NCBI GenBank assembly: GCA_021158185.1
Contig: JAGGVC010000104.1
Location: 8,992 to 72,991 of the forward strand
DNA: 64,000 nucleotides
Reading direction: 5' to 3'
Source of the DNA: a bacterium
GTDB taxonomy: Bacteria > 4484-113 > JAGGVC01
This document shows, piece by piece, positions 4,704 to 38,307 of this stretch. Numbering within the stretch: the first letter of the stretch is position 1; each line of letters opens with the position of its first letter. The notes beneath the pieces were generated by a model. The model worked only from the letters and a program-made list of their open reading frames with translations. It was not told where the DNA came from and made no database searches. The translations under genes and the position numbers were made by a program.

Positions 4704-7085
4704 ATGATTCCCGATAGAAATTTCCCTGCTATACTCGCTCCTGTGGGTTACTGGCCTTTTATCACTGTTGGCGGGAAGTACGGGACAAGTATAATCATCA
4801 GGGGCAACCTAAAAGCCCTTCCTCAATTTGCCCAGGGAATCATTCACAGGTATTTCAACCGGTGGCGCTCGCTTTACGATCCTACAAGCTTTCCCGACCT
4901 GTTGACCGAGCTAAGAGGCCTTAAACCCGCGATCAAGGTTGATAATGCGGCGGTCGAGCGCTACAACAAGTACATCGAAATACACACGATCGTTTTATCT
5001 GCTTCCGAGAGTGAAGCGAAAGAGGGGCGAAATAGCGGGATAGCGCAAGTAATGGCCAGCAAAAAAGGTGACAGGACGACTCCGCGGCTGGGTGCGATAC
5101 TGCGCGCGTTCTGCGACGAGAACGGCATTCTGCGTGAACCAGCAAGAGTCTGGGAGATGGCCGAGCGCATTCGGGAAGAGGACGGACTCGTGGAGTACGA
5201 TGCAAGGTTCACTTCCGCATTCAGGAAACTTGCGGTAGAAACTGTTGTGTTTCTTCCATCGGTATACTTCAAATATCAAATTGAAGTTGGATATCACCCG
5301 AAAATCCTCAAGCCGAAATTTCTGGAGATATTGAATCCCCACCTCGAAAAATGGCCATTTATCGAGCGGGGCGGCAGGCAGTCCGCGCGCTGGCTGCTCA
5401 AGTCGGCGGCGGCGGTTACCGAACTTGCGGGGAATCTCAGGCAGGCTGGCTGCAATGTTTACCTTTATTACGAGGCATGGGGAAACGTACGCCGGGAATT
5501 CCTGCTTGCAGGCGAAGCGCCTCCCGATGCTCCTGTTCCAACTGTTAAGCCCGTTCGGGTAAGCGATTCGGATTATGGTAAGCGCGCGTATTCAACAAAG
5601 GCAATCATGGAAGATGATTTGAGCGCCTGCACATCGGCGACGCTTTATCCGTTCCAGCAAATCGGAGTGAGGCATCTTGTTCATACGGGGCAGGCGATGC
5701 TGGCGGACGATATGGGGCTTGGCAAAAGCGTGCAGGCAATCGCTGCCATACGCTTACTTGCGGAAAGAGAAAGGCTGTATCGTGCGCTTATCATCTGTCC
5801 GGCGTCGCTCAAGTACCAGTGGAAAAACGAAATCGAGCGGTTCACGGATCTTTCACCCACGGTCGTCGAAGGCGACAAGGATACGCGGGTGGCTCTCTAT
5901 CGCCATCAGGCGCAGCACAGGTACGAGCTAGAAAGATGGCCGATGAAGAAGTTACCGCAAGTCTTCATCGTCAACTACGAGCTTTCCTTTCGGGACGAGA
6001 AAGGCCTGCGTGAGCTTAAGCCAGATGCGATTATTCTCGATGAGGCGCAACGAATAAAAAACTGGCAGAGCAAGACGCACCAGGCAATCGTGAATCTACC
6101 TGCCAGGTTCAGGTTCGTACTCTCAGGTACGCCGCTCGAAAACGAGCTTATGGAGCTTTTCAATGTGCTTCAATTTGTAGACAAGGGCGTACTCGGTGCA
6201 AATCCTATAGAAGCACGAAAACGGTATACGGTATTCGATAAATTCGGTGGAATTGACGGCTACCAGAATCTCCGAGAAGCGAGCCGCAGGATCAGCGGTG
6301 TGAGCCTCAGACGTACGCGAGAGGAAGCGCTGGAAGAACTGCCGGAGCTTATCGAAAGCCACTACTGGCTCGAACTGGAAACTGACCAGCGAAAGATCTA
6401 CAACGATCTCGAAGAACGCGCGCGCGATTACCTTTCGGTGAAGGAATGGGATCGTGTTGCATACGATAACGCACTCACAACGGTGCAGCGCCTTCGAGAA
6501 GTCTGCGATACTCCGGAAATGCTGTTTCCGGAGCACAAGCAGAGCGCGAAGCTCAAGGAGCTCAAAGTAATCCTCGGCGAACAGGTGGGCGAAATGCGAA
6601 GGCAGGCGATAGTGTTCACACAATGGACGCGTATGGCCGAGATTCTCGAACGCGAGCTTACGAGCTGGGGGCTTACCTATCGATACATGCACGGTGGTTT
6701 GAATGCAAAAACGCGCACACAAATCTGTGAAGAGTTTAACCAGGGCGATGCAGATATTTTCCTTTCGACCGATGCGGGCAGCGCTGGCATAAACCTGCAG
6801 GCGGCAAGCATCGTAGTCAATTTCGATCTACCGTTCAACCCCGCGATCGTGGATCAGCGCGTGGCGCGCGCGCATCGCCACGGTCAGAAATCGAGCGTGA
6901 ACGCTTGGCATCTCGTCGTCCGAGGTACGATCGAGGAGAATCTTGTCAGGATTCTCAGAAGGCGCAGGACGCTCTTCCAGGATATTTTCAGCGAAGTTGG
7001 CGACGGAACTGCTCATTTGTCTGCATCAAGCAAGGGAAAAACATTCCTGATTGAGCTTCTCGGCAAGAGGGTACCCGCGCTTTAG
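4704..7085 (+). CDS. SNF2/SWI2-family DNA-dependent ATPase/helicase with a roughly 310-aa N-terminal domain of unknown function.
   Basis: Helicase motif I LADDMGLGKS, motif II DEAQRIKN, motif III LSGTPLEN, and C-terminal helicase motifs (FLSTDAGSAGINLQ, QRVARAHRHGQ). The N-terminal 310 aa show no motif I recognise. Confidence 0.85.
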   Translation: MIPDRNFPAILAPVGYWPFITVGGKYGTSIIIRGNLKALPQFAQGIIHRYFNRWRSLYDPTSFPDLLTELRGLKPAIKVDNAAVERYNKYIEIHTIVLSASESEAKEGRNSGIAQVMASKKGDRTTPRLGAILRAFCDENGILREPARVWEMAERIREEDGLVEYDARFTSAFRKLAVETVVFLPSVYFKYQIEVGYHPKILKPKFLEILNPHLEKWPFIERGGRQSARWLLKSAAAVTELAGNLRQAGCNVYLYYEAWGNVRREFLLAGEAPPDAPVPTVKPVRVSDSDYGKRAYSTKAIMEDDLSACTSATLYPFQQIGVRHLVHTGQAMLADDMGLGKSVQAIAAIRLLAERERLYRALIICPASLKYQWKNEIERFTDLSPTVVEGDKDTRVALYRHQAQHRYELERWPMKKLPQVFIVNYELSFRDEKGLRELKPDAIILDEAQRIKNWQSKTHQAIVNLPARFRFVLSGTPLENELMELFNVLQFVDKGVLGANPIEARKRYTVFDKFGGIDGYQNLREASRRISGVSLRRTREEALEELPELIESHYWLELETDQRKIYNDLEERARDYLSVKEWDRVAYDNALTTVQRLREVCDTPEMLFPEHKQSAKLKELKVILGEQVGEMRRQAIVFTQWTRMAEILERELTSWGLTYRYMHGGLNAKTRTQICEEFNQGDADIFLSTDAGSAGINLQAASIVVNFDLPFNPAIVDQRVARAHRHGQKSSVNAWHLVVRGTIEENLVRILRRRRTLFQDIFSEVGDGTAHLSASSKGKTFLIELLGKRVPAL

Positions 7086-7158: not shown

Positions 7159-9222
7159 CTAACCTGCGGTTACATTGATTGTACGCGCAACGGTGCTGCG
7201 GCTGTCGGATACCTGGAAGTTGACTCTGTATGTTCCAGGCGTGTCATAGGTGTGAACAGGATTCTGTCCGTTGGAATCGAACTTCCAGTCGCCGTTGAAA
7301 TCCCAGTAGAACACCGGATTTATTACATCCGCATTCATAACCTCAGCCTTGAAGATAAACTGCAAGGGATTTTTCGGATTGTGCTGGGCGGAAATTGTAG
7401 CGGTGAAAGGGCTCATAATCGAAAATGTTCGTGCTTCAATCCGCTCCTGGCCTGCTGCATCCTTGAACGCGATCGTTACGGGATAATTACCTACTTCCTC
7501 GTAGATGTGGCTGAAGACGCCCGTTCCAAATTGTGAGAATCCTGCAGGGCCTGGCGGGAAGCTTGTGCCGTCGCCCCATTCTATGCGCACAGTATAAGGC
7601 TTTGTTCCTCCGTTGACCGTTGTGTAGACATAAATGCTTGTATAAACAGTTCCGTTTTTGCCCTGGTCAGGATTCGTTATTACCTGAGCTATTCTGAGCG
7701 GTCGCGGTACATTGACCTGTGCATATGCCCGAACTGCTGCAAGGTTGATGTTCAGCCGTCCCGGCCCGACGAGAGGATCGGACACACCGAGATCGCCCCA
7801 GGTGTCGACTGCGCCGAGCATTATTTCACGAACTGCGTCTATCTGAAAGAGCTGCTCGCCCATCGCATCGGCGACGAGGGCACCTGCACCTGCTGCAAGA
7901 GCTGCGCTCATTGCCGTGCCGTTAGCATAGACGTAACCGGTGATGGGTGGGTTTGCTTCAGGGTCCTCCGGTCGTGAATCTGTAGTGATCAGCGCAAAGC
8001 CAGGCGTTGCGAAATCGATGGTTCCGCCTTCTGCATCGAAGTTGGATGTAAACAGGCGAATTGTCGTTGGAAGGTGCAGACCGCCGACTGCAATAACGTT
8101 TTCGCGCGCGCTGTTTGCGGGGTAAATTGTTGATGCGTCTACCGGAGTTTCACCGTCGCCGGCAGGAACAACGACGAGCGTGTCATTTGTCTCGCAGTAC
8201 GTTAGCGCACCTTCAATTACCGGTTCATCAGCGGGGATCGAAACTACAGCAACAGGCAAGAGAACCACACTTACGTCGATATCCGCTGCATATCGCAGGG
8301 CCGCGTTGATTTCCAGGTCATTCATAGCCCAAGTCGGAGCCGAAATGTTCTCGATGTGACCGGTCTTGAGGATTACAAGCTCGCATTCGGGCGCTATACC
8401 CGCGAGTCCCAGTTCGTTGTTGATGTTAGCCGCAACGATGCCTGCAAGGTACGTTCCTATGGCACCGGTTACGATGTAGGATTCATCTGAAATATCCGCG
8501 CCTTCAACGACATCACCATTATCTTCGGAGAAGCTTTTCGAAAGCCCGCTTATCCTTCCAGCGAGATCGGGATGTGCTTCGTATACACCGCTCGAAATTA
8601 TCGCTACTTTGATGCCCGTTCCGCGTGCGATATCCCACGCGCCTTCTGCGCTGACGGGCTCGAGCGTCGTCTTCTGATAGGGGATCAGCGTGGGAGGTTC
8701 GGTCGTATCGTCGGTTTCCGCTTCTACATAAAAAGGGTCGTCGGGAAGGAAACTCGGTGATCTCGCGGGTGATGTAGTGACCGAAAGCGCGGGGTAGGTC
8801 TTTCTAGGTGATACGAAATAAACGCCTTCAAGCAATTCAGCGGCGAGAATGTGCGCCTGTTCGTTCGTTGTAATTTCAACCAGGCTTGCAGGTGGCAACA
8901 CGTTATCCGGATTTTCTGATGATGGCGTTGCGTCTGCATCTACAAGTTCGGCTTCGATATTCCTCTGCTCCGCCCACGAAAATAATGTGTCGGGGCTTGA
9001 AGTGAAGGCGAGATAGCGACCGGGAATGGGCTGTGGCTTAAGCGACGCATCCGGGAACCCGGATGGAATTTGCGTATTTGCGGGGAAATCGGGTGAAGCG
9101 CTGCCGTTGTAAGGCGGTTGGCTTGGTGGCGATGTGTATTTGGCTGGTGCATGACCGCAGGAAAGAGCGAAAATGATTATTGCGGCAAGTATGAAGGCAA
9201 TCGCCTTTGAGTTCGAGCACAT
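7159..9222 (-). CDS. Subtilase (peptidase S8)-like lipoprotein with every catalytic residue substituted, so it is predicted to be a pseudo-protease. It carries C-terminal PKD-like domains.
   Basis: The track ORF extends to 9303. I prefer the Met at 9222, which gives a signal peptide MCSNSKAIAFILAAIIIFALSCG with a lipobox Cys. The S8 fold motifs are recognisable but altered: VAIISSGV (the D of the DTG motif becomes S), IGTYLAG (catalytic H becomes I), PAGDGE (oxyanion N becomes D), GTAMSAA (catalytic S becomes A). The C-terminal WGDGT and WDFNGDW motifs are typical of PKD domains. Confidence 0.7.
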   Translation of the reverse strand: MCSNSKAIAFILAAIIIFALSCGHAPAKYTSPPSQPPYNGSASPDFPANTQIPSGFPDASLKPQPIPGRYLAFTSSPDTLFSWAEQRNIEAELVDADATPSSENPDNVLPPASLVEITTNEQAHILAAELLEGVYFVSPRKTYPALSVTTSPARSPSFLPDDPFYVEAETDDTTEPPTLIPYQKTTLEPVSAEGAWDIARGTGIKVAIISSGVYEAHPDLAGRISGLSKSFSEDNGDVVEGADISDESYIVTGAIGTYLAGIVAANINNELGLAGIAPECELVILKTGHIENISAPTWAMNDLEINAALRYAADIDVSVVLLPVAVVSIPADEPVIEGALTYCETNDTLVVVPAGDGETPVDASTIYPANSARENVIAVGGLHLPTTIRLFTSNFDAEGGTIDFATPGFALITTDSRPEDPEANPPITGYVYANGTAMSAALAAGAGALVADAMGEQLFQIDAVREIMLGAVDTWGDLGVSDPLVGPGRLNINLAAVRAYAQVNVPRPLRIAQVITNPDQGKNGTVYTSIYVYTTVNGGTKPYTVRIEWGDGTSFPPGPAGFSQFGTGVFSHIYEEVGNYPVTIAFKDAAGQERIEARTFSIMSPFTATISAQHNPKNPLQFIFKAEVMNADVINPVFYWDFNGDWKFDSNGQNPVHTYDTPGTYRVNFQVSDSRSTVARTINVTAG

Positions 9223-9427
9223 CTTTTCGGTCTGTGCCATTTCCATTCGTCTACACACTTTGAGAAGCGGAAAAGCCATAAACACGTGAAAATTATACCC
9301 CATTCAGGCTCGGCAGACAGGAAACATGGGCGTTTCAACAAGGCGGATTGTGCAAAAACGCGCTGCAATGGTGGAATATCGCTGCGAATGAAATATAATC
9401 AGTGCAGCTTTGTCGAGGTGGGAACGA

Positions 9428-9883
9428 ATGGAGCGTACATTTGTGATGGTAAAGCCGGACGGTGTTGCTCGTGCTCTCGTTGGCAGAATCATTGGTGTGT
9501 TCGAGGAGAAAGGCATGACGCTCAAGGCGATGAAACTGTTGGACGTTACGCCGGAGCTTGCGAAGAAGCATTACGCCGAGCACGAGGGCAAATCGTTTTA
9601 CCCCAGTCTGATCGAATATATCCAAAGCGGGCCCGTGGTGGTCATGTGTTGGGAAGGGCCAAACGCGGTATCGCAGGTGCGCGCGCTCGTTGGTTCAACC
9701 CATCCGAAGGACGCCGCGCCGGGTACGATTCGGGGAGATCTCGCGCTTGATATCTCTAATAATCTTGTGCATGCGAGCGATAAGCCTGAGACCGCGGAAA
9801 GGGAGCTTGAGATATATTTTTCCGATGATGATTATGTTAAGGAATGGCGCAGAGCGGACGCGAGGTGGCTTTTAGAGCGGTAG
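9428..9883 (+). CDS. ndk: Nucleoside diphosphate kinase.
   Basis: MERTFVMVKPDGV..., GSTHPKDAAPGTIRGDLA, NLVHASD (active-site His). The track ORF starts 18 nt earlier, at 9410. Confidence 0.9.
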   Translation: MERTFVMVKPDGVARALVGRIIGVFEEKGMTLKAMKLLDVTPELAKKHYAEHEGKSFYPSLIEYIQSGPVVVMCWEGPNAVSQVRALVGSTHPKDAAPGTIRGDLALDISNNLVHASDKPETAERELEIYFSDDDYVKEWRRADARWLLER

Positions 9884-10056: not shown

Positions 10057-11196
10057 ATGCACCGTTATTATTTGACTCGCCATTTCGTTAGAACTGTTTT
10101 TCTATGGCTCGTGCTCTTCGCGTTCGCTCCTGCATCATCCGCACTCGCACAGGAGGCGGATGATGTCGAGGAAAGCGCAAATGAGACGGCGATGTCGGTA
10201 GACGGCCTGCTCGGCTTTAGGCTTGGTGAAGCTACAGGTGCTGAGGCGCTGACGACTGTACTTGACAAGCCGGAAACGGAACGCAGCACGTACCGTCTTG
10301 AGGAGAATCTCGTTCTCTATACGTTCAACGTTGAAAACTGGATGGGCGATCTCGATCTCGAACTCCCGGTGGAAGCGACCTGTACGTTGTTCGTTTTCAA
10401 GGGGATCGTTGCTGCTTTCAGGATGGATATCGATTTCGGCTCGCTCGACAGCTCCGTTCGGGAGGAATTCAAGGCGCATTTCAAATCCAGGCTCGGATGG
10501 GAGCCGGGCGTTACGAGGAGCGAGAATTTTCATCTGTTGCAGTGGATAGATGAATCGGAAGGTATTTGCAGGTTTTATGAACTTGCAGGTGGCAGGGACA
10601 TTATCTGCTGGGCAATCGGCGACAAGGCGCGTGATCGCATCAAGTACTTGAGGCTTCTCAATTACGCAGATGGCGTGCTCGAAAAACCTGACTGGTTTCC
10701 CAATGACGAAATACTGGGATTCGGGGATTTTATCCTTGGATCGGACATAATGACGGCGCAAGGCGAACACGGAGGCTACAAGTTCCTCGGAATTCGGAAG
10801 GAACGAAACGGCAGATTCGATGCTCTTTGCTTCCAATCGCCGTCGTCCCCAATCAGCACGATTAAAGTTGATCCTGAACAGGGGGCATTCATCTTTGTAC
10901 TGATCGGTGCGGGCAAGATCCGCGAAATAAGCCTGGTTTTTCTTCACGGTACGTATGATCCCGGTCAGCTTGAAGATACGAAATTGCTGTACGAGCAGAA
11001 GTATGGCGCTCCCTTGTACAACGACGCGGGACTTCCGTACTGGATCGATCTCTGGAATGCGACAGAAATAGAATTCAAGGAATCCAGTGTTTTTAACTGG
11101 ATTGAATATTCCGATCTTACTTACATAGACGTAAGCATAATCGAGGTTTTCGGTCAAGGTGCGGTTGGAATGTCGGCGGATGTCGATCGGATTTAG
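10057..11196 (+). CDS. Hypothetical secreted protein of 379 aa with an N-terminal signal peptide.
   Basis: A GGAGGAAGG Shine-Dalgarno precedes the ATG. The N-terminus has a hydrophobic h-region, FLWLVLFAFAPASSALA. I recognise no motif. An equally long antisense ORF (10135..11274) is judged spurious because it is Arg-rich and has no Shine-Dalgarno. Confidence 0.55.
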   Translation: MHRYYLTRHFVRTVFLWLVLFAFAPASSALAQEADDVEESANETAMSVDGLLGFRLGEATGAEALTTVLDKPETERSTYRLEENLVLYTFNVENWMGDLDLELPVEATCTLFVFKGIVAAFRMDIDFGSLDSSVREEFKAHFKSRLGWEPGVTRSENFHLLQWIDESEGICRFYELAGGRDIICWAIGDKARDRIKYLRLLNYADGVLEKPDWFPNDEILGFGDFILGSDIMTAQGEHGGYKFLGIRKERNGRFDALCFQSPSSPISTIKVDPEQGAFIFVLIGAGKIREISLVFLHGTYDPGQLEDTKLLYEQKYGAPLYNDAGLPYWIDLWNATEIEFKESSVFNWIEYSDLTYIDVSIIEVFGQGAVGMSADVDRI

Positions 11197-11363
11197 GTGA
11201 TTGCTACGAAGCGCTGTTGGTCGCGAATGCTCCGTGATAAAACCGCAGTGTGCTCGATAAGTTAATTTGCACATGTTCGTTTCTATAAGGGGTATAATTA
11301 ATCGTGGGAACTCGCAAATTTACTGTGGTCATTATTACATTGTGTTCTTCAGAATCGAATAAT

Positions 11364-11444
11364 TGGGCGAGGGGGGATTCGAACCCCCACACCTTGCGGC
11401 ACAAGATCCTAAATCTTGCGTGTCTGCCATTCCACCACTCGCCC
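11364..11444 (-). tRNA. tRNA-Leu, anticodon UAG. This is a class II tRNA with a long variable arm.
   Basis: Reverse complement: GGGCGAG-T-GGTGGAATGGCAGACAC-G-CAAGA-TTTAGGA-TCTTG-TGCCGCAAGGTGT-GGGGG-TTCGAAT-CCCCC-CTCGCCC-A. It has a 7-bp acceptor stem, a 5-bp anticodon stem, loop UU-UAG-GA, a 13-nt variable arm and a GTTCGAAT T-loop. CCA is not encoded. Confidence 0.85.
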
Positions 11445-11601: not shown

Positions 11602-12867
11602 CTATTTTGTTTTTCCGCGTTTGATGGCCAGTTCGCCATCCCAGGTGCCCGAAGTGTCGATTCGATGGACGACAACAGGATTGAGTCGTCCGGGCAGTAC
11701 GATTTCTTCCTTACTGCTGAATTCAACGTTTTTCAATTCTGCTTTGGCAAGGCGATGAGATTCCTGGGAAACGATGATTCTATTGTTGCGCTCGTAGTTG
11801 GCAAGTCTGCTGGCGACATTTACCGTGTCACCGATTACCGTGCTGTTCATAACCTGCCCGGACACGCCTACGTTTCCGAACATTACTTCGCCGCTGTCGA
11901 TACCGATTCCGATGTAGAATTCCTCCGCAAGCCACCGTGCGCGATCCCTGTTGATCTCCCTTAATTCCTTCATGATGTCGATCGAGGCGCGTATAGCATT
12001 GGCCGCGTTGGCGCGCTTGCCGCTATCGCGGCGGAAGACAGCCATAAGGCCATCCCCTGTGAACTTATCCACCGCTCCTCTGTGTCGGCTAATAATCGTG
12101 CTGAACCGTCCGAGCATCTTGTTCAGCTCTTCTAGAACAAGGTCCGGATCGTGCATTTCCGCGAAGATCGTGTAATGCCGGATATCCAGAAAGAGCACGG
12201 TCAACCATTCTCGGCGCGCAGTTTCAATCGCCTTCATATTGCCTCGCAGCGCGTGTACCACGAGGTCGGTTGGAAGGAAATGCCAAATGCTCTGAACGTT
12301 TATGAATCGCTTATAGAAGAATTCGATTTCCTCCAGCATCTGGCGTATCTGGAAAAGGTTGTTATTGCTTAATCGGTCGGTACTGATCTTGAAGATACGG
12401 TAGAAGATGCTTGAATAGCGGTCCATGAAATCAAGGAGTACATCGCCGCTGACAGTGAAAACCACAAGATCGCGCCTTGCTCTGACCGTTGCGGTTGCTG
12501 CGGAGTGGAGAATTATGCCGATCTCGCCGAAGAAGTCTCCTCTTGAAAGACTTGCGATCTTGATTCTGCGTGTGCCAACTGATTTGAAAACATCAGCCTT
12601 CCCGCGATAGATGAAGTAAATGCTTCTGCTTGCTTGTCCCTCGTGAATCAGGTATTCGCCCTCGGTGGGCGCGATGACTTCTACCTTTTCAACGAGATCC
12701 CTGAGGTCTTCGCCGGTAAGATCCGCAAAGATGTCGAAGTTAAGCAGTTCACGCGCTATGTCCCGCTCAGTAAGATCGGTCAGTTTCTTCAGAGTCATTC
12801 CTACCTCCGAAATGATCCGTAAGCTGGAACTGATTATAGTCTTAACACAAGCGATGTGCAAAAGCAC
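11602..12867 (-). CDS. Cyclic-nucleotide-binding (CAP-type cNMP) domain fused to a class III adenylate/guanylate cyclase catalytic domain.
   Basis: The N-terminal half has the cNMP-binding signature (FGEIGIILHSAATATVRA, a phosphate-binding cassette). The C-terminal half has cyclase motifs: FLDIRHYT (metal Asp), FTGDGLMAVF, GIGIDSGEVMFGNVG. Confidence 0.8.
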   Translation of the reverse strand: MLLHIACVKTIISSSLRIISEVGMTLKKLTDLTERDIARELLNFDIFADLTGEDLRDLVEKVEVIAPTEGEYLIHEGQASRSIYFIYRGKADVFKSVGTRRIKIASLSRGDFFGEIGIILHSAATATVRARRDLVVFTVSGDVLLDFMDRYSSIFYRIFKISTDRLSNNNLFQIRQMLEEIEFFYKRFINVQSIWHFLPTDLVVHALRGNMKAIETARREWLTVLFLDIRHYTIFAEMHDPDLVLEELNKMLGRFSTIISRHRGAVDKFTGDGLMAVFRRDSGKRANAANAIRASIDIMKELREINRDRARWLAEEFYIGIGIDSGEVMFGNVGVSGQVMNSTVIGDTVNVASRLANYERNNRIIVSQESHRLAKAELKNVEFSSKEEIVLPGRLNPVVVHRIDTSGTWDGELAIKRGKTK

Positions 12868-20196: not shown

Positions 20197-21171
20197 ATGG
20201 CGAAAGAGCAGAAAGCCGTTGTATCGCGCGATGTTGAGGATGCATCTGTTGATCTCGACCGCGTGATCGCTAGTGTGGAGAGCGTGATATTCGGCAAGAG
20301 ACGGGTAATCGAATACCTGCTGATTGCGTTACTTGCAGACGGACACGTTCTCATCGAGGATGTGCCGGGTGTCGGAAAGACGATGCTCGGCCGTGCTCTT
20401 GCTCGAAGCCTGGAGCTTGATTTCAAGCGCATTCAGTTCACGCCCGATCTCCTGCCTAGCGACTTGACCGGAAGCATGATTTTCAATCAGAAAAGCGGCG
20501 ATTTTTATTTCAAGCCTGGGCCGGTATTCGCGAGCGTTGTACTTGCCGACGAAATCAACCGTACCAGCCCCCGTACTCAGTCAGCGCTCCTTGAGGCGAT
20601 GGAAGAGCGCCAGGTTACGGTTGACGGCGTTCCTCACGAGCTTCAAGTTCCATTTTTCGTAATTGCGACGCAGAATTCAATCGAGCATCAGGGAACATAT
20701 CCGCTCCCAGAAGCGCAGCTTGACCGCTTTCTATTGAAAATCAGGGTCGGGTATCCGTCCGATTCGGAAGAAATCGCAATCCTGGAAAGCCAGCAGATTC
20801 GACATCCGATCGAAGATGTCCAATCGGTTATCAGTCCTGATCGGATAAGGAAACTTCGAGACTTGGTTCGCAACATTCATATAACGCCCTCGATTCGCAG
20901 GTACGTTGTGCGGATCGTAAATGAAACGCGCAGCCATCCCGATGTTCTTGTCGGTTGCAGTCCACGCGGTTCGTTGGGGCTTGCGCGCGCGTCGCAGGCA
21001 GCGGCCTTGATTGCTCGTCGAGATTACGTTGTTCCCGACGATGTTCAGGAGATGGCGCCCATCGTTCTCGGTCACAGGTTGTTCTTGCTTGCGGAATCGC
21101 AGCTTTCGGGCGTAAGTTCGCGGCGCGTAATTGATGACATCATCTCACGGTTACCGGTACCAACCGAGTAG
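20197..21171 (+). CDS. MoxR-family AAA+ ATPase.
   Basis: Walker A GVGKTML, MoxR-type Walker B LADEINR, and a sensor region. Confidence 0.9.
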   Translation: MAKEQKAVVSRDVEDASVDLDRVIASVESVIFGKRRVIEYLLIALLADGHVLIEDVPGVGKTMLGRALARSLELDFKRIQFTPDLLPSDLTGSMIFNQKSGDFYFKPGPVFASVVLADEINRTSPRTQSALLEAMEERQVTVDGVPHELQVPFFVIATQNSIEHQGTYPLPEAQLDRFLLKIRVGYPSDSEEIAILESQQIRHPIEDVQSVISPDRIRKLRDLVRNIHITPSIRRYVVRIVNETRSHPDVLVGCSPRGSLGLARASQAAALIARRDYVVPDDVQEMAPIVLGHRLFLLAESQLSGVSSRRVIDDIISRLPVPTE

Positions 21172-22599
21172 GTGAGGAGCGTGTTCAGTCCCGCCTTCAT
21201 TATCCTCTTTGTGCTCGACCTTCTTTTTCTCGCATTTGCCTTGATAAAAGCGGAACCCGTTCTGATGACCTACTCAATCATTGCGCTTTTCCTCTTGATA
21301 ATATGGGCGTTCATCTGGAGATTTCTCTCGATTCGCCTGGGCATCCAGCGAATTATGCTCAGCAAAACTTCTATCGCCGTGATGCTCCTTGCGGCATTCA
21401 GCGCGACCGTGAGCATAATTTTTAGTACTCACTTGCTTGTCTTTACTGCGGTATTCATTTTCACAAGCATCGTGCTCATATTTATCTGGTCGCTCATATC
21501 AAGCATAGGGCTGACAATTAGGCGAGAACATCACAGGATCGCGCTCATAGGACAGCCTCTCGAAGTGAGCATTACACTTGTCAATAACAGCCGTTGGCCC
21601 CGTTTCACTGTTATCGGGTTTGATTATTTTCCGGCAGCAAGTCACGAAGCGGGATACCAGGAAATGTGTTTTGTGAGTGTGCGCGGAAAAAGCGAAGTCA
21701 GCCTGAAGTACGAGGCACTTCCTTCGCTCAGAGGGGATTGGCGGATCGGCCCGTTTTATTTCTGGGGGGGCGATCCCTTCGGCTTCTTCAAGCATGAGCG
21801 TCTCGTTGAAATTTATACAGAGCTTATTGTTGTCCCTGTTCCGTTCAGAATCCGAATGAATGCTCTTGATAGCATCAGCAGAAGGCCTAAGGACGAAGCC
21901 GCAACAATCTCGAAAGCTGGTGAATCCGTCGAGTTTCTTGGCGTCAGAGAGTATCGTGAAGGCGACAGTATGCGGAAAATCCACTGGATATCGAGCGCGC
22001 GCACAGGGGAGCTTATAACAAAGCAGTTCGAGCTTAACGTGGCTAGTACGCTATCGTTTCTTCTTGTAAATACACCTGAAATGAGCGTTGGTATGGAGCC
22101 TGAAAAAACGCCGCTCGAAGATTCGCTCAGAATCATTATCTCACTAGCCCAGGGTGCAATCCGAGCGGGATATGAAGCGAGCTTCACGGAGCTTGGCGGA
22201 GAGAAAGAGCGGGATGCTTGGAGTGGCACAGGCCGTCAATTCCTGTCTGATCTGTCGGTGCGTCTCGCGCGGATCGGCGAAGGTGCGGATGTGAAATTAT
22301 CCGAAGAACTCAGATGGATTGTAGAGCTTGTTCCAGAAGGAAGCAATCTCTTCCTCTTTGTATCTTCCTGTGATGAAGCGGATCAAAAGCTTTATTCTCA
22401 TCTAACGCAGCGATTCAGGCGGCTTGTGGTAGTCCACTTCGATCTTGGAAGCTACGAAACCGGTGAAAGCTCGATACCTGCACCTAGAACTGTAGGTTCA
22501 GGTAAGCACCTTGTTTACAGGATCGAATACGGCGATGACCTGAAGAGGGTGACTGAGCGGATTCTCAGGCAGCTTCAAAAGGAGGTAGCCCTTGCATAA
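21172..22599 (+). CDS. DUF58-domain protein with an N-terminal multi-transmembrane region.
   Basis: GTG start immediately after the moxR stop. An alternative GTG at 21181 has a GGAGG Shine-Dalgarno. About 130 aa of hydrophobic segments are followed by DUF58-like GESVEFLGVREYREGDSMRKIHW. Confidence 0.8.
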   Translation: MRSVFSPAFIILFVLDLLFLAFALIKAEPVLMTYSIIALFLLIIWAFIWRFLSIRLGIQRIMLSKTSIAVMLLAAFSATVSIIFSTHLLVFTAVFIFTSIVLIFIWSLISSIGLTIRREHHRIALIGQPLEVSITLVNNSRWPRFTVIGFDYFPAASHEAGYQEMCFVSVRGKSEVSLKYEALPSLRGDWRIGPFYFWGGDPFGFFKHERLVEIYTELIVVPVPFRIRMNALDSISRRPKDEAATISKAGESVEFLGVREYREGDSMRKIHWISSARTGELITKQFELNVASTLSFLLVNTPEMSVGMEPEKTPLEDSLRIIISLAQGAIRAGYEASFTELGGEKERDAWSGTGRQFLSDLSVRLARIGEGADVKLSEELRWIVELVPEGSNLFLFVSSCDEADQKLYSHLTQRFRRLVVVHFDLGSYETGESSIPAPRTVGSGKHLVYRIEYGDDLKRVTERILRQLQKEVALA

Positions 22600-25045
22600 A
22601 GGATCGAGCGAGTTTTTTCCAGCGGAGGTTTTCGCTCGCATTCGAGGGGTACCTGGCCGTAAGTGGCTATATGTTTTTACTGCGATCGCAACGGTAATCG
22701 GCGTCCAGCTTCTTTATCTCACGAACGACGATTTTAATCTTAATGCCGGCTTGAGCGTTGCAGTGATCATCGGTTTTGTCTTCAGCTATTATCTCAACGC
22801 GGCCTATCAGAGATTTATGATTGTTGTTCTCGATATCGTTGCCATATCGATTTTCATTTTCTATATCACAAAAGTCGCTTCAAATCCCGTTACCTGGGGT
22901 AATGAGCTGGGGATTCTTCTTGGTCTTCTGATATCGATTTATAGTTTTCGCGCATACACGGAACGAGACCACAGGATGATCCTTGCATCGTGTCTCGTGA
23001 TAATGCTGCTTGCGAGCGTCGCGAGCTACGACGTGAAGTTGATGTTCGTTCTTCCTTTGTTCGTATTCTGCGGATTTGCAAGTCTTTATGTAGCGAATAA
23101 TCTTAGTTTATCGGACAGAATCCCGTATCTCGCGAGCGAAGTGGGAGCCGGTAGCGCCATTGTGTATCTTGCCGGACGCGCCACGATTGCAGTGCTTGTA
23201 GTGAGCATTCTGTTCTACATGTTAGTTCCTCACAGCGCAACCGTGAGGAATCCACGATTCAGGCTTCCCACAAGCACAATTATTACAGGGGATGATGAAG
23301 AAGATATCCCGCTCGAAGAACGTGAACAGATTACTGAACAAAGCAGCATAAGCGGATTCAGTGACGAGTTCGACCTGAAAGGGGGAAGAATCGAACTGGA
23401 GGATGAGCCTGTACTGCTCGTCAGAAGCACGTTGAACGATTATCTTCGAGGCAAGGTTTTCGACGTATATAACGGGAAAGGCTGGTCGCAATCGGAACTT
23501 TCGAAGGAAAAGAACAGGCCGGTGTTTTCTGAAGATGTTCTCGGCACACTTAAAAAGAAGTTTCCAGAATCCTCGATTATGGGCAATGTTCAAGTTTTAC
23601 CGCTTGTGGATTTCCCGTCGAGAAAGCTTGAGGAGAAGTTTCTAAAGGACAAGCTGATTTTTGTCGCGAAGGACAACACGTATTCAACTCAGGGAATGGA
23701 TGATAATCCTGATCTTAAGTATTCCATTCACCCGCTTGAAATCACGTTCCTGAAAAACGATGTCGCAATTTTCTTTTCACCTTATCAACCTTACAGGATC
23801 GAAGATGTAACTGGAAGGAATCCGTCCACCAGCACGGAGCGTTACGCCGATCCGGTTGTTGATTCCTTCAGCGTGATTAACGCATATAGAAGCGGAAGAC
23901 GGATGAGCTACTTCCCCAAGGGCATTCATTACAAGTTTTTCGTCCTGAAACCTTCCATCATTCCGATAAAGCTCAAGGAAGCTCCAAACAATTATCCTGC
24001 TGGATTACTTGAGCATTACACACAGCTTCCTCCGACAATCGACAGAAACAATCCGAACGATGCCCTTGCCAGGTTCGCCATCACGGTTGCAAACGGTGGC
24101 ACCGAGGATGCGGGACTTATCCCCTACGAGAAGGTGCTCAATATTTACGACCACTTCGTTAATTCGGGTGAATACGAGTATTCCCTGGAATATCCTGAGC
24201 TTCCCACCAAGAAGATCATGCGGGTTGACCCCGAAAGCGGAGAAACGTACGAAGAAGAGGTTGCGAAGGTTGACGCTGCATATCATTTTGTTTTTGTAAC
24301 GAAGAAAGGATATTGCGAGTTCTTTGCCAATGCATTTGCGGTTTTCTGCCGGATTAACAGCATCCCATCGCGTATCGTCACAGGATTTGCGCCCGGCAGG
24401 TATGATTTCATGAAAAACGGCTATGTCGTGTCGACAAGAAATGCACATTCCTGGGTTGAAGTTTATTTCGACGGGTTCGGCTGGGTATCGTTCGACCCGA
24501 CACCCGCGTCATCCGACTTTCTGAGTGCAAGCGAGATCAGGAGCTTTTTCAGTCAGACGTTCGATTATATCCAGAATCTCTTTGTTATCGACCCGCAGGG
24601 AGTGCAGCGCGTAACGGTCAGATTCTTTGCGACTCTCAGCCGAAGGGTATACGAAGTTGCAGTCGAAAACAGCGTAACAAGTACGCTGATCCTTGCAGTT
24701 CTTTCCGGCTTTTTGATCTTCAGCATCTGGCGTCGAAGACCCAGGAGGGAGCCGCCGCATATTCCGAAGAACGCGGTTGTCGCTTCGTATTACGGTCTGG
24801 AGAGCGCTCTTGCGGAAAACGGTTACATGCGGCCGGAGCATATGACGGGTAAGGCGTTCTTAAGAGGAGTAGCGTCTTCGGTAAACGAGCTCTCGTCCGT
24901 CCTTAATGAAATCGCAAATACATACTATGTGTATGCATACAGTTTGAAGGAGCCTGACGCGCGCGATGCCGAACGCGCGCGCGCGATTTTAACCGTTGTT
25001 CGCGAGTATTTTGCAAAGCGGGAAAAACGTGATGGAAGATCATAG
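22592..25045 (+). CDS. Transglutaminase-like (TGc) domain membrane protein. It is the third member of the MoxR, DUF58, TGase triad.
   Basis: Its start overlaps the DUF58 gene's stop by 8 nt. It has N-terminal transmembrane helices, the TGase core CEFFANAFAVFCR...HSWVEVYFDGFGWVSFDPT (Cys-His-Asp triad context), and a C-terminal transmembrane helix. Confidence 0.8.
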   Translation: MHKGSSEFFPAEVFARIRGVPGRKWLYVFTAIATVIGVQLLYLTNDDFNLNAGLSVAVIIGFVFSYYLNAAYQRFMIVVLDIVAISIFIFYITKVASNPVTWGNELGILLGLLISIYSFRAYTERDHRMILASCLVIMLLASVASYDVKLMFVLPLFVFCGFASLYVANNLSLSDRIPYLASEVGAGSAIVYLAGRATIAVLVVSILFYMLVPHSATVRNPRFRLPTSTIITGDDEEDIPLEEREQITEQSSISGFSDEFDLKGGRIELEDEPVLLVRSTLNDYLRGKVFDVYNGKGWSQSELSKEKNRPVFSEDVLGTLKKKFPESSIMGNVQVLPLVDFPSRKLEEKFLKDKLIFVAKDNTYSTQGMDDNPDLKYSIHPLEITFLKNDVAIFFSPYQPYRIEDVTGRNPSTSTERYADPVVDSFSVINAYRSGRRMSYFPKGIHYKFFVLKPSIIPIKLKEAPNNYPAGLLEHYTQLPPTIDRNNPNDALARFAITVANGGTEDAGLIPYEKVLNIYDHFVNSGEYEYSLEYPELPTKKIMRVDPESGETYEEEVAKVDAAYHFVFVTKKGYCEFFANAFAVFCRINSIPSRIVTGFAPGRYDFMKNGYVVSTRNAHSWVEVYFDGFGWVSFDPTPASSDFLSASEIRSFFSQTFDYIQNLFVIDPQGVQRVTVRFFATLSRRVYEVAVENSVTSTLILAVLSGFLIFSIWRRRPRREPPHIPKNAVVASYYGLESALAENGYMRPEHMTGKAFLRGVASSVNELSSVLNEIANTYYVYAYSLKEPDARDAERARAILTVVREYFAKREKRDGRS

Positions 25046-25772
25046 ACTGCTTATTATTAATGCCGATGACTTTGGACGAACACCTGAGATTTCGAAAGGA
25101 GTACTCGAATGCGCTGCAACCGGAATCGTCAGAAGCTCGACAATTATGTCCAATTTCGTTTCGGAGAGCGATATCAGTGCGCTTGCCGATTCAGACCTTT
25201 CCGCAGGGCTTCACTTCAATCTGACGAGCGGCAGTCCGATTGCTTTGTGGCCGAAAGATCTTATCGGTAAAAACGGGTATTTCAAGAAGGATATCGCTTC
25301 AGATTTACCGCGTGAACTCATCGAAGATGAGATTTATGCACAGTGGGATTATCTTGTATCGAGGGGAATTCGTCCGACACACATTGACAGCCACCATCAT
25401 GTACATGCCTTTGCAACTGTTTTTGCCGTTGTCGCGGAATTTGCGCTTAGACGCGGCGTATCCGTAAGACCTTGCAACAAAGATGTCGCAATGCTGCTTG
25501 TACATTTGGGCATAACGGCACCTGCAGAATTTTCGGATAGCTTCTTCGGCCTCGAAAATCTGTCAAAAGAGGGTTTCCTAAAGATTCTTGACGCTTGCAG
25601 TTCTGACTCGCTCGAAATAATGTGCCACCCGGGATATTCATCGCGCGAACTGGCTCTTTCAAGCACGTACGCGGAGGAACGCGAGGCTGAGCTTGGGATT
25701 CTCAGTGATTCCAGCCTTCTGTCCGAGATCGAAGACCGCGGATGGCGGATCGGGACATATCTCGATCTTTAA
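25032..25772 (+). CDS. YdjC/ChbG/HpnK-family carbohydrate deacetylase.
   Basis: LIINADDFG (family signature) and HIDSHHHVH. The start was chosen at MEDHRLL; the track ORF starts at 24996. Confidence 0.75.
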   Translation: MEDHRLLIINADDFGRTPEISKGVLECAATGIVRSSTIMSNFVSESDISALADSDLSAGLHFNLTSGSPIALWPKDLIGKNGYFKKDIASDLPRELIEDEIYAQWDYLVSRGIRPTHIDSHHHVHAFATVFAVVAEFALRRGVSVRPCNKDVAMLLVHLGITAPAEFSDSFFGLENLSKEGFLKILDACSSDSLEIMCHPGYSSRELALSSTYAEEREAELGILSDSSLLSEIEDRGWRIGTYLDL

Positions 25773-25865
25773 TTACGCAATATGGATACCTGGAAGCTCT
25801 AGTGGATAATCCGTGCGGCGTAGTCAACGGACGCTTTCGATTCGTGAGGGTATAATCTAATCGTT

Positions 25866-28800
25866 TTGAAGATGCAAGGGCTTATGTACAGAAGCAAGGG
25901 AAGCATATCGGCTCCAGCGGTTCGCGTCTGCATAGTCGTTGTCGCTTTCGTGCTTGCAGTTGGCGTTGTCGGTTCCTGTCGTGCAGGTAAACCGGTTTCA
26001 TCTGCCAGTTTCCCAGGATCCGAATCTGCTCCCGACAAGCCAAGCGGTGACAGCGAAAGCTATATCGTTAACGATTCCTTCGGGCTTGCATTGCTGGATC
26101 GCTACGATAAAGCACTTTCGCATCCCGATCGAGTTGTCTCGCTTGATAAACTCGATAAAGAAGACAGCGCTTTACTGACAATTACCTCAAAGGCCGGTCG
26201 GCTTCCGGACGATCTATTTATGGCTGTTAATTATGATTCCAGCCAATGGAGTTTCAAAGGTGCATCCTATGGCGGAGCAATGGGCGATAATGCGATTCAC
26301 ATAGAGTGCATTGCCTCATCAGGCGTTCTGAACCTCGGCGTTGCCCGGATGAAGGACGAGCGGGGGGTGAAGAACGGCGATGGAGCCGAGGCGGACAGAG
26401 TAATCTACACTCTTTTGTTTGCCAAGGGTGCCGAATCGGCGATGCGGGCGGTATGTAGCGCGCCGGTTGAAGAGCACAACAAAGTTGTCGATCTATCAGG
26501 GGAAGACCTGGGCAACAATACTGTTCGGCTGACGTGGACGGAAATCAATATCGGCGATTACGACAACAGTGGCGAAGTCGGCGTGCCGGATATCACTCCC
26601 ATCGCCGTTCATTTCCTTGAAACTCCTGCAACAGCCGATAATCCTGAACTGTTCATTCTGATTGACGGTGACAACAGCGATGAAATCGGCATATCCGACA
26701 TAACTCCCATCGCCAACAATTACCTGAATCTCATTTCGGGCTACCTTGTTTTCAGGGATGATCTGGGCGACGAGCCGATTGCACCGGGCAGTGAACTGCA
26801 GCCGACGATAGCGCGCCCGGAGCCGTCTCCAGATCATGGGCGGTTGCTATGTACGTTTTCAGACAGGCCGACCGCATCCGGAACGTATACCTACACTGTT
26901 AGACCTTTCAGTCTTCCTGATGATGAAGTACCTGTAGGTATTGAAAGCGATCCCGCCGCGGTCGAATTCACGGTGCATGGCATAGACGATGTAACGCCGC
27001 CAGTCTGGGACGACGATTCGGTAAAGTTGTCCGTAACCGGCGGAGAATCAAGCGTTTTTGTCGAATGGGGCAGGGCGGTCGACGCTGAAAGCTCGCCTGT
27101 AGATTATCTGATCTACGTATCCGAAGGCGATTCGGTTGAATACGAGACGCCTCACCGAACCATTGGAGCGGGAGATCCCGATCCTGACGAGCACTCGCTC
27201 GCTATCTCAGATCTGCCTTCCGGTACGAGATTCACGATAGCAGTCCGTGCGCGGGACAATGCGTTAAACCCGAATATTGATCAGAATACAGAGACGGTCA
27301 CGGTTGATCTCGTCAAGAACCTTGGCTGGCTCGACTTCAGGGGCGGCCCCGGAAGAACAGGCTCGATTCTGTCCACGCTCTATCCGCCGCTGACACTGTC
27401 ATTTGAGTTTTCGAAAGATCCTCCGGGAACCTGGTTCGTATCAACGCCTTCTATCGTCGGAAGCGATCTTGCTTCGCCTGATATCGCCGTTTGCGCGATA
27501 GACGAGGTTGTTTTTGCACTCGATATTTCCGATCCAGACAACATTCAGGAAATATGGACCTATCCCACGGGCGATCTCATTGACGGAAGCCCGACTGTCG
27601 CGGCGGACCGCGTGTTCGTCGGAAGCCGCGATCACAATTTCTACTGCCTGGATCTTGCAGATGGGGCTTTTATCTGGTCGTTCCCTATAACGGGAAATTG
27701 CGCGACCAGTCCGGCCGTTGTGGATGACGTTGTTTTCTTCGGCACAACGAGCGGCGATTTGTACGGTTTGTCCATCTTCGACGGAGAAGCGGTTCACGCG
27801 CACAGTGTGGATGCGACGATGTCTAGCAGTCCAGCGGTGGTTGACGGATATGTTTATGGTGGAAGCGGGAACAGCCCGTCTGTTCCTGCCAAGATTATCT
27901 GCTACGACACAGTTTTGAAGACGAGGAAATGGGAGTATCCGACAGATGCGGGCGTGTTCGGAACTCCTGCCGTTGCTGACGATCTTGTAATGGTTGGCGA
28001 CTTGGCAGGGAACTTGTATATTCTCTCGACTTCCGGAGCTGAACTTTACAAGATTCCATTGGGCGCAGGGATAAACGCGAGCCCTGCATACGGCGATGGC
28101 ATCGTGTACGCTGCGACACTCGACAGCAAAGTCTATGCAATTAACACGGCGACCGGCGAGGAAATATGGCCTGCACCTGCGACAATCCCGGGTGCTGCAG
28201 GGATTTTCTCAAGCCCGCTCTTGACAGGGAATTACCTTTATGTTGCCGGAAGCAACGGGCATCTTTACGCACTTGAAGCTGCAACAGGCGAAATCGTATG
28301 GGAGTGGGGAGGTTCATCTATACCGGTTACATCGAGCCCTGTAACTTGGGGCGGGCAAATCTTTCTTCAGGGCGGCGACAACACGCTACGAGCTTTTATT
28401 TCCAACAGCGATTACATACCTCCAGCGTGGACATCGCACATCGGTATATATTCCGCTTCATGGACAGGAGAGATAGGAAATCCTTTTCTCAGGCTTATAG
28501 CGGGTGATGCAACTGAATCGAAAACGCCGCCTGTCAAATGGATGTTCTATATGAGTCGCGCTGATGAAGTTGATTTCATCGATGCCGATCTTCCAAGTTC
28601 ACAAACAATAACACTCGGCCCAGTACTCGCGCCGGATTACACGCTGAATCCGGCCGGTATGGCGATCGCGCGCGCACAGTGGAACGCGCATCGCGCGTGG
28701 TACGCCGCGCGCGTGCTCGACAGCGCGATCCCCGCCAATTACGATTCAAACGAAGAAATAATCGACTACACATTTCCATGGTATGGCTTCGAGCGTGGAA

Positions 28801-29990: not shown

Positions 29991-30084
29991 GATTTGCCGG
30001 GTGATACAGTCTGTAACGTGAAGTCAGAAGTTGAATCGAGTCGGTACGCTATAGGGTTGTTGCTTAGGGCTCGCGAAGGAGGGG

Positions 30085-36915: not shown

Positions 36916-38307
36916 ATGAACGAGATAACGTCAACTACACCAGGACCGATGCTGGAAATCGGTTTCATCAGCCTTGGCTGCCCCAAAAACCAGCTTGACC
37001 TCGAGCTGATGCTGGGGCAGACAGCCGCGTGCGGTTACAGGATCACCAGTCGAATCGAAGACGCCGATGTAATCGTTGTAAACACATGCTCGTTCATCGC
37101 ACCTGCGCTTGAAGAAGCTGATAGGAATATACGAGATGCTGCGAAATACAAAGAACACGGCAAATGCAGATTCCTTATCGTCTCAGGCTGCCTTCCGCAG
37201 TATCTGAAGGAAAAAGCGCTGAGTGAGTACCCTTTCGTGGACGCGTTTATGACACCTGATGATGTAATGAGCCTTGCGGGAGTGATACGATCGCTCGAAA
37301 GTCAAGATCATCATAGATCCGATGATCTGAAGAGCCTTCTTCTGCCGACATTTCTATATAGCGGCAAGGAGCCGCGCATTCTGAGCACACCACCTGGGAT
37401 GGCTTACGTGAAAATCGCCGAAGGATGCAGTCATCGGTGCAGCTTCTGCATCATTCCGCAGCTGCGGGGCCGTTATCGCAGCCGAAGCGTTGAGAGCATA
37501 GCAATCGAAATCGAATCTCTGGTAGAGAAGGATATAAAGGAAATTGTCCTGATAAGCCAGGATTCAACGCAATTTGGCAGGGATCGAAAGGATGCAGGAG
37601 AAAACCTGAGATCGCTTTACGAGCGCTTAATTACGATTCCGGGCGATTTCTGGATAAGAACTATGTATCTTTACCCAAACAGAGTTGTTGAATCTGTTCT
37701 TGACATCATAAAAAGCCATTCCGATCGCATCCTTCCGTATTTCGATATACCAATTCAGCATATAAGCAGCGACTTGCTCGGCTCCATGGGACGAATCGGG
37801 GATCAACATGCTATAATTAGGTGTCTTGAGCAAATTCGTCGGGATGTTCCCGGCGCTGTGATACGTACTAGCCTGATTGTCGGGTTTCCGGGTGAAACCG
37901 AGGAGCAATTTGAAGAGCTTCTTGCGTTCATCAGTCAGGGATTGATTGACCGTTTGGGCGTGTTCACGTTTTCCAATCATCCTGGCATACCCGTCTATCA
38001 GGAATTTGAACTGATTTCTGAAATGGAGAAGTCCGTACGCCGCGATTTGTTGATGAAGGAGCAGGCGAAGATCGCGCAAGTTAGAAGCAATGACCTGGTC
38101 GGACTTGAGACCAGGATACTCATTCAGGATCGAAAAAGGATTGATGGACGAAGTTATGCTTACACGGGTCGAAGCTATCGAGATGCCAATGAGATCGATG
38201 GCGTTGTGCTTATTCGATCGAAGAAGCGAAGGCCTACGGGAGAATTCGCAAACGCACGAATAACAAAGGCTCATACATACGATCTGGAGGCGTCTTTCCT
38301 TCATTAA
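36916..38307 (+). CDS. rimO: Ribosomal protein S12 methylthiotransferase RimO (radical SAM, MiaB-like).
   Basis: N-terminal MTTase domain with GCPKN, a radical-SAM CxxxCxxC (CSHRCSFC), and a C-terminal TRAM-like region. Confidence 0.85.
   Translation: MNEITSTTPGPMLEIGFISLGCPKNQLDLELMLGQTAACGYRITSRIEDADVIVVNTCSFIAPALEEADRNIRDAAKYKEHGKCRFLIVSGCLPQYLKEKALSEYPFVDAFMTPDDVMSLAGVIRSLESQDHHRSDDLKSLLLPTFLYSGKEPRILSTPPGMAYVKIAEGCSHRCSFCIIPQLRGRYRSRSVESIAIEIESLVEKDIKEIVLISQDSTQFGRDRKDAGENLRSLYERLITIPGDFWIRTMYLYPNRVVESVLDIIKSHSDRILPYFDIPIQHISSDLLGSMGRIGDQHAIIRCLEQIRRDVPGAVIRTSLIVGFPGETEEQFEELLAFISQGLIDRLGVFTFSNHPGIPVYQEFELISEMEKSVRRDLLMKEQAKIAQVRSNDLVGLETRILIQDRKRIDGRSYAYTGRSYRDANEIDGVVLIRSKKRRPTGEFANARITKAHTYDLEASFLH

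Follow-up and report, generated by a model that had tools for sequence, protein, structure and literature searches.

A rare family of putative pseudo-subtilase lipoproteins with PKD domains in uncultured bacteria

The stretch of DNA analysed here, a window of 64,000 nucleotides from contig JAGGVC010000104.1 of a bacterial assembly (GCA_021158185.1), carries on its minus strand a long gene whose product is recorded in the databases as 'S8 family serine peptidase [bacterium]'. It faces, in convergent orientation, the gene of an SNF2-family helicase (4704..7085), whereas ndk (9410..9883) is divergent from it; the surroundings are chromosomal and of housekeeping character, with genes for glutamate-synthase-like Fe-S proteins, mutL, ubiE, rex, parAB, gidB, murB, recA, rny, ruvA, lexA and uvrC. 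Its product is predicted to be a cell-envelope lipoprotein that combines a signal peptide with a lipobox cysteine, a proline-rich tether, a subtilase-type prodomain, a thermitase-like S8 domain and two PKD domains (Table 1). The observations reported below lead us to consider it, with high confidence, as a conserved pseudoprotease.

Table 1. Features of the pseudo-subtilase gene and of its product. Coordinates are those of the window and residues are numbered on the longest open reading frame (ORF); pLDDT, predicted local distance difference test.
Feature	Residues	Coordinates	Strand	Basis or remark
Pseudo-subtilase ORF, longest reading	714 codons	7159..9303	-	Uninterrupted; TAG stop
Candidate true starts	M20, M22, M28	9244-9246, 9238-9240, 9220-9222 (span 9220..9246)	-	Orthologue N-termini; TATAAT
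Signal peptide (predicted)	M28-C49	9157..9222	-	Hydrophobic stretch, then Cys49 (codon 9157-9159)
Pro/Ser-rich low-complexity tether	50-90	9034..9156	-	Modelled disordered, pLDDT below 50
N-terminal beta-alpha-beta-beta-alpha-beta domain	91-179	8767..9033	-	Prodomain-like in models; least conserved part
Prodomain/S8 junction	180-227	8623..8766	-	PS[FY]LPNDP...PPTLIPYQKTTLEPVSAEGAWD; most conserved segment of the protein
S8A thermitase-like pseudo-catalytic domain	228-530	7714..8622	-	Pfam, alignments, fold match
Substitution at Asp32	S237	8593-8595 (TCG)	-	Motif KVAIISSGV; D of vaviDtG aligns; S or G in relatives, D in P0040
Substitution at His64	I282	8458-8460 (ATA)	-	Motif GAIGTYLAG; first H of HGTHvAG aligns; I, T or N in relatives
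Rewritten substrate-pairing strands	313-356	8236..8367	-	Alignment; HIENISAPTW and VLLPVAVVS
Substitution at oxyanion-hole Asn155	D383	8155-8157 (GAC)	-	Motif VVPAGDGE; N of aaGN aligns; D or E in every relative
Family-specific insertion	D442-T455	7939..7980	-	DSRPEDPEANPPIT; conserved, directly before the former Ser motif
Substitution at nucleophile Ser221	A464	7912-7914 (GCA)	-	Motif NGTAMSAA; S of GTSMA aligns; A, P, V or L in relatives
First PKD-type beta-sandwich	~537-630	7414..7695	-	WGDG motif; Pfam, structure matches, model
Second PKD domain	~633-714	7162..7407	-	WDFNGD...QNPVHTY...GTY; Pfam, structure matches, model

The Peptidase_S8 profile of Pfam (PF00082) matches residues 228-499 with an E-value of 2.7e-19 and a score of 70 bits (cutoff 21.8), over positions 1-273 of its 288. 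This match, together with the subtilisin-fold model described below, confirms the original prediction, made from the letters of the DNA, that an S8 scaffold is recognisable in the protein. The catalytic columns were set by residue-level phmmer alignments to solved proteases (7xr8, 7y6m and thermitase 1thm), and also by the Pfam profile, by an alignment of a family profile with thermitase and by a MAFFT alignment with 10 active homologues, the references being thermitase, the intracellular subtilisins and these 10 proteins. In all the alignments (four independent ones) the same four residues occupy these columns: S237, I282 and A464 stand in the place of the Asp-His-Ser triad and D383 in that of the oxyanion Asn155, while Y285 replaces the second His of the HGTH motif. 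The four exchanges proposed originally (Asp to Ser, His to Ile, Asn to Asp and Ser to Ala) are therefore found in every profile, pairwise and multiple alignment, and the profile alignment that had been suggested as a check places them on the catalytic columns, with no intact triad appearing elsewhere. Only position 383, always Asp or Glu, is itself conserved among the four. A search for another triad among the family-invariant residues yielded none, nor any usable invariant His, Ser or Cys, because the sole invariant His is the generic, non-catalytic histidine of an HPDL motif and the sole invariant Cys is Cys49 of the lipobox. Judged from its sequence, the S8 domain is catalytically dead, being devoid of nucleophile, base, acid and oxyanion residue.

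This loss is shared by a family. Ten further copies were found (P0002 to P0007, L004, L089, P0040 and the disrupted L088), all from uncultured bacteria; the relatives are 35-58% identical and P0040 is more distant. A word-indexed search of 5.8 billion clusters returned the window protein and six orthologues with 35-58% identity, a profile search for further members gave one fragment only, and a metagenome scan added one partial copy, L089. The exhaustive profile search of 1.84 billion representatives was made with the full-length query, PKD domains included, so that giant multi-PKD proteins dominated its matches; it brought one new member, the distant P0040 (L087:6001-8004, Logan SRR22388033). 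Among 185,579 GTDB species-representative genomes two were positive, L003 and L004, which are metagenome-assembled genomes (MAGs) titled 'uncultured Planctomycetia bacterium' by their submitters. The family is thus very rare, with about 10 clusters among the 5.8 billion and these two species representatives.

In every member the equivalents of His64, Asn155 and Ser221 are lost, being replaced by Ile, Thr or Asn, by Asp or Glu, and by Ala, Pro, Val or Leu, respectively. The equivalent of Asp32 is Ser or Gly except in P0040, the most distant member, which alone keeps the aspartate (VAVIDSGV). The distribution of these residues indicates that the loss of His, Asn and Ser predates the whole family, P0040 included, and that the Asp was lost later; P0040 has the appearance of an intermediate that has survived from the loss of the active site. 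The D, H and S motifs are intact in every complete protein among the 57 nearest S8 matches outside the family. A word-indexed search started from P0040 revealed neither closer relatives nor an active sister of the same architecture, and P0207, in which S8 is combined with PKD, is an ordinary active S8 protein. The orthologue search suggested with the original prediction has accordingly found relatives, and these have the catalytic loss in common.

The family is also under selection. Between L003 and L086, whose proteins are 76% identical, the ratio of non-synonymous to synonymous substitution rates (dN/dS) is 0.095, with 0.09 for the S8 domain and 0.10 for the PKD region, at a synonymous divergence (dS) of 1.8. 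For the window and L088 (96.5% nucleotide identity) it is 0.18, with 45 synonymous and 26 non-synonymous changes. In more distant pairs the synonymous sites are saturated, the proportion of synonymous differences (pS) being at least 0.75, and the proportion of non-synonymous differences (pN) is 0.25 in the S8 domain and 0.08-0.14 in the junction which precedes it. Strain-level comparisons with L083 and L084, which differ by 1-2 substitutions only, were uninformative. The gene is under purifying selection of a strength usual for an envelope protein, and not in neutral decay. Both values lie well below 1, and they join the shared loss and the absence of an alternative triad in bearing out the proposal that the protein is conserved, non-catalytic and not decaying.

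The remainder of the active site has been rewritten as well. The elements 100-104, 123-128 and 209-217 of subtilisin line the S4-S2' cleft. The strand corresponding to subtilisin 100-104 has changed in the family from VLxxSGSG to G(R/H)VxNxPxPxW, with 7-8 residues inserted (HIENISAPTW in the window protein), and the strand corresponding to 123-128 from (I/M)N(L/M/A)S(L/W)GG to LLPxAVVS (VLLPVAVVS). At the sequence level, the substrate-pairing strands of active S8 enzymes (SGSG at 100-104 and SLGG at 125-128) are therefore not kept, and the xPxPxW stretch with its insertion and LLPxAVVS stand in their place. A conserved insert of about 10 residues (DSRPEDPEANPP), in which D442, R444, P445, E446, N451, P452 and P453 are conserved, precedes the former Ser. 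From the established numbering of subtilisin we take the insertion D442-T455 to be the 209-217 hairpin, on the prime side of the cleft. These changes indicate a cleft that would have been rebuilt with new, strongly conserved residues and not merely switched off, so that it appears remodelled rather than retained.

The strongest conservation is found in the junction between the N-terminal domain and the S8 domain, where the block 208-222 reaches 91% consensus; next comes TPGFALITTDSRPEDPEANPPITGYVYANG, directly before the former Ser. Mature thermitase-type enzymes start with the segment PNDPxY..QW.L..I.A..AW, of which the junction is a homologue with an insertion of about 15 residues. In an active subtilase this position would contain the autoprocessing site.

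An AlphaFold (AF2) model built from a 17-sequence alignment (pLDDT 79.3; predicted template modelling score, pTM, 0.66) consists of the disordered tether, a beta-alpha-beta-beta-alpha-beta(-beta) domain at 91-179, a poorly modelled linker at 182-215, a subtilisin fold and two beta-sandwiches. A comparison with the PDB by Foldseek gives thermitase 1thm with a template modelling score on the target (TMt) of 0.84 and an E-value of 3e-17, and at E <= 1e-3 the matches number 192 PDB chains, with subtilases in all the top ranks. AprV2, StmPr1 and intracellular subtilisins are among the further matches, as are multidomain pro-forms of like layout (fervidolysin 1r6v, ProN-Tk-SP 3afg and EpiP 3t41). 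The structure prediction called for at the outset has thus provided a confident subtilisin-fold model. When modelled alone, the N-terminal domain reaches a pLDDT of 82 with beta-alpha-beta-beta-alpha-beta topology, and its best PDB folds are the prodomains of PCSK9 (the top match), site-1 protease, Aspergillus fumigatus Alp1 and furin/PC1 (PC1/3), all weak (E 0.009-0.1, TM 0.5-0.58). It is the most variable part, with a pN of 0.49-0.65. Because it lies directly in front of the S8 domain, we take it to be a putative divergent subtilase prodomain. At the other end of the protein, PKD_4 (PF18911, 47.8 bits against a cutoff of 27) and PKD (PF00801, 46.2 bits against 23.5) each match two stretches with E-values of about 1e-12, and the same regions match the PKD structures of ColH; the C-terminal PKD-like repeats that had been announced are hence two domains above the Pfam gathering scores.

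As to the N-terminus, the original prediction described a protein of 714 amino acids encoded at 7159-9222. The uninterrupted ORF of 714 codons exists, but 9222 corresponds to Met28 and to a product of 687 amino acids, so that two different starts had been combined. The N-termini of the orthologues match only from M20-M28 of the long ORF, and a perfect TATAAT is found on the minus strand at 9289-9294, within codons 4-5. For these two reasons M1 is an unlikely start: translation probably begins at M20, M22 or M28, and the first 19-27 codons (the region of 9289-9303) are probably untranslated. Cys49 is found in each of the eight relatives whose N-terminus is complete, and several of these have a canonical [LVI][ASTVI][GAS]C lipobox (V-S-G-C, I-A-S-C, L-V-S-C or V-I-S-C).

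The order ndk, pseudo-subtilase, SNF2 helicase recurs in L003, L004 (where ndk is 73% identical), L083, L084, L086 and L088, and is thereby kept across orthologues which are 51-57% identical. It is missing in the branches of P0005, P0007 and P0040 and is confined to one branch of the family. Between the gene and the convergent SNF2 gene lie 73 nt, in which there is no terminator and no unusual RNA structure, and the only Rfam matches in the window are two tRNAs. Apparently the gene is monocistronic and its inheritance vertical.

The neighbourhoods of the family members contain a number of other genes. In the P0005/P0007 branches a radical-SAM gene lies just upstream on the opposite strand (L001:6958-7869, L085:4362-5288 and L089:536-1627), with a phosphoribosyltransferase gene between it and the pseudo-subtilase in L085 and L089; in the window no radical-SAM gene stands beside the pseudo-subtilase, and one of MiaB/RimO type lies about 28 kb off, at 36916..38307. 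The neighbours of P0040 are an AbiEii/AbiEi pair and a CsgG-like gene. The interval that separates the pseudo-subtilase from the SNF2 helicase contains no gene in the window, but a 215-aa gene of unknown function (L003:9940-10587) in L003, whose orthologous locus is 57% identical, and a 259-aa gene without Pfam family in L086. Beyond ndk in the window, a 379-aa ORF on the plus strand (10057..11196) begins like a signal peptide, belongs to no Pfam family and is called as a gene in L083 and L084 too; it is mirrored on the minus strand by an ORF of 379 aa at 10135..11274. An adenylate/guanylate cyclase fused to a cyclic-nucleotide-binding domain is encoded on the minus strand at 11602-12867, its 3' end overlapping a spurious-looking ORF, and tRNA-Leu (11364..11444) lies just downstream of it. 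Further on, at 20197-32679, a cluster of MoxR AAA ATPase, DUF58 and transglutaminase-like (TgpA) genes is followed by YdjC, by a 1374-aa protein with PQQ/BamB-type beta-propellers and by an 864-aa protein without Pfam family.

The interpretation we propose is that of a non-catalytic binding or scaffold lipoprotein of the cell envelope, to which, as the best overall explanation, we assign a probability of about 0.7. Because the S8 domain has no nucleophile, its prodomain could not be auto-cleaved; it would stay covalently attached and the protein would be a permanent pro-form. The highly conserved junction peptide and the remodelled cleft would then form the functional surface of this uncleaved pro-form, which would act by binding and not by cutting, in the role of an envelope-tethered scaffold or receptor whose PKD domains would serve as spacers or as additional binding modules. 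That it acts as a tethered binding or scaffold protein has, in our estimate, a little better than an even chance.

Several observations weigh against this interpretation. No ligand or partner was found, and no operon or partner gene is conserved across the family, the neighbourhoods differing between branches. The assignment of the prodomain rests on topology and on fold matches with E-values of 0.009-0.1: ACT-type ferredoxin folds score close to the subtilase prodomains, and Pfam Inhibitor_I9 has no match at E <= 10 in the N-terminal domain of any of seven members. The junction, which we propose to sit in the cleft, is modelled with low pLDDT at residues 182-215. The lipoprotein signal claimed originally is sustained by the hydrophobic stretch and the invariant Cys49 but not by the window protein's own lipobox, A-L-S-C, which is non-canonical; we accept the lipoprotein reading as a prediction. 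In the comparison of the window with L088, the dN/dS of the pseudo-subtilase is higher than that of both its neighbours, SNF2 (0.046) and ndk (0.10). Finally, the L088 copy itself (L088:1279-3347, on the 8.8-kb metagenomic contig Ga0366824_1048753, JGI 3300033153) is split in two and has two deletions: codons 201-220, the most conserved block of the family, are missing through an in-frame loss of 60 nt, and a further 16 nt are missing at codon 314, with a shift of the reading frame. The explanation would be either a recent loss of the gene in that population, where it would be dispensable, or a faulty or misassembled contig.

The nearest functional precedents are CspC and CspA, S8A proteins of Clostridioides difficile germination, which are conserved and functional without proteolysis and have, like the window protein, a subtilase fold with a degenerate triad. 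In CspC the uncleaved prodomain lies across the degenerate site and the protein acts non-catalytically (PMC6636752). Restoring the triad of CspC and CspA fails to restore activity, other parts of the site having drifted (PMC7200643), and the rewritten substrate strands of the window protein parallel this drift. The differences are nevertheless numerous. In CspC two residues of the triad are lost and the Asp is kept, whereas the window protein lacks all three and the oxyanion Asn as well. A jelly-roll domain of about 130 aa is inserted in the subtilase domain of the Csp proteins (PMC6636752), whereas the S8 domain of the window protein has about 300 aa and no inserted beta-barrel in its modelled secondary structure. 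The window protein is not a spore protein, it combines a predicted lipoprotein signal with two PKD domains at the C-terminus, and its family comes from uncultured bacteria labelled Planctomycetia (in the submitters' titles of two MAGs), the Csp proteins from Peptostreptococcaceae. Membership in the Csp family was rejected on the NCBIfam scores, 11.2 bits for CspC_non_triad against a cutoff of 675 and 12 for CspBA against 1250, and Csp structures are absent among the 60 best of 141 PDB sequence matches (E <= 0.001).

This precedent leads to an alternative, namely that the protein is the regulatory partner or sensor of an active protease encoded elsewhere, as CspC and CspA are for CspB, and that it binds a signal or the active subtilase and controls its activation. 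The only well-studied bacterial pseudo-subtilases act in this way (PMC7200643, PMC6636752), and the conserved, remodelled cleft with its acidic residue at 383 could make a small-ligand site. A phmmer search against all six-frame ORFs of the window, however, revealed neither an S8 paralogue nor another protease, and no neighbouring protease is conserved at any of the seven loci examined. Together with the scores of the CspC and CspBA models, at 11-12 bits, and the missing jelly-roll insertion, this makes such a regulatory role unlikely in our opinion.

The best matches of the window protein in both sequence and fold are thermitase (1THM), fervidolysin (1R6V) and ProN-Tk-SP (3AFG). Fervidolysin shares the layout of a prodomain, a catalytic domain and two beta-sandwich domains, and the thermitase-type enzymes share the PNDPxY...AW motif of the mature N-terminus. 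These enzymes are proteases with a complete D-H-S triad and Asn155, in contrast to the window protein, which is devoid of these residues and carries insertions at the 100-104 and 209-217 segments. Two other labels were rejected: that of a type VII mycosin, whose model TIGR03921 gives the best NCBIfam score (105.8 bits, with the cutoff at 278.75), a sign of general S8 similarity only, and that of PamR, also from NCBIfam and far below its cutoff. Another analogue comes from outside the bacteria: in PCSK9, a eukaryotic proprotein convertase of subtilase fold, the prodomain stays bound, and the protein acts on the LDL (low-density lipoprotein) receptor by binding and not by cleavage. The PCSK9 prodomain is the top fold match of the N-terminal domain (a weak one), but PCSK9 is a distant homologue that keeps an intact triad and autoprocesses once, so that the resemblance is a functional analogy only.

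By analogy with CspC, one may go further and imagine that the dead S8 domain, the permanent prodomain and the junction form a new envelope-anchored module for ligand sensing or reception. A specific ligand, external or periplasmic, would be bound in the remodelled cleft of this module (D/E383, the DxRPEDPxxNPP loop and the xPxPxW strand), and the protein would correspond, in Gram-negative-type form, to the germinant receptor CspC, with an independent origin in a Planctomycetia-like lineage. We mention this elaboration as a speculation whose chances are small.

Could the protein still be an enzyme, with a new active site, for example around D383, Y285 and the D442/R444/E446 insertion, and a non-proteolytic or atypical hydrolytic chemistry? 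Every member has Asp or Glu at 383, the insertion beside the former nucleophile contains a cluster of invariant charged residues, and pseudoenzymes with migrated catalytic residues are known (PMC10211241). The invariant residues nevertheless include no His, Ser or Cys beyond generic or structural ones, small or hydrophobic residues exchange freely at positions 237, 282 and 464, and the Pfam and NCBIfam profiles give no similarity to other enzyme families, which makes a new activity very unlikely. As for a decaying or recently dead protease on its way to being lost, the two deletions in the close relative L088, one of them frameshifting, and the extreme rarity of the family would fit it, but it is already largely refuted and extremely improbable in view of the intact full-length ORFs of the same architecture across lineages only 35-58% identical, the dN/dS of 0.1-0.18, the nearly invariant junction and insertion, and a loss of His, Asn and Ser that is older than the whole family, P0040 included.

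By one estimate pseudoenzymes make up 10-15% of a typical genome (PMC7200643), and homologues without catalytic residues have a formal category in MEROPS, that of the 'non-peptidase homologues' (PMC5753285); the window protein fits a non-peptidase homologue of family S8. The literature searched describes no pseudo-subtilase or S8 non-peptidase homologue with the lipoprotein-prodomain-S8-PKD-PKD architecture, and we therefore consider the family as a small, undescribed one of pseudo-subtilases, a kind of pseudo-protease which is itself already known.

In conclusion, our observations correct the annotation of this family, whose members are recorded as S8 family serine peptidases although none of them can work by the classical serine-peptidase mechanism. 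The family does not open a long-standing question. It would add to the Csp proteins a second, independently evolved and cleanly delimited family of bacterial pseudo-subtilases. The completeness of the loss, which extends to the triad, the oxyanion residue and the substrate strands, and the partial intermediate that P0040 appears to represent would make it a tidy natural case of the repurposing of a protease scaffold.

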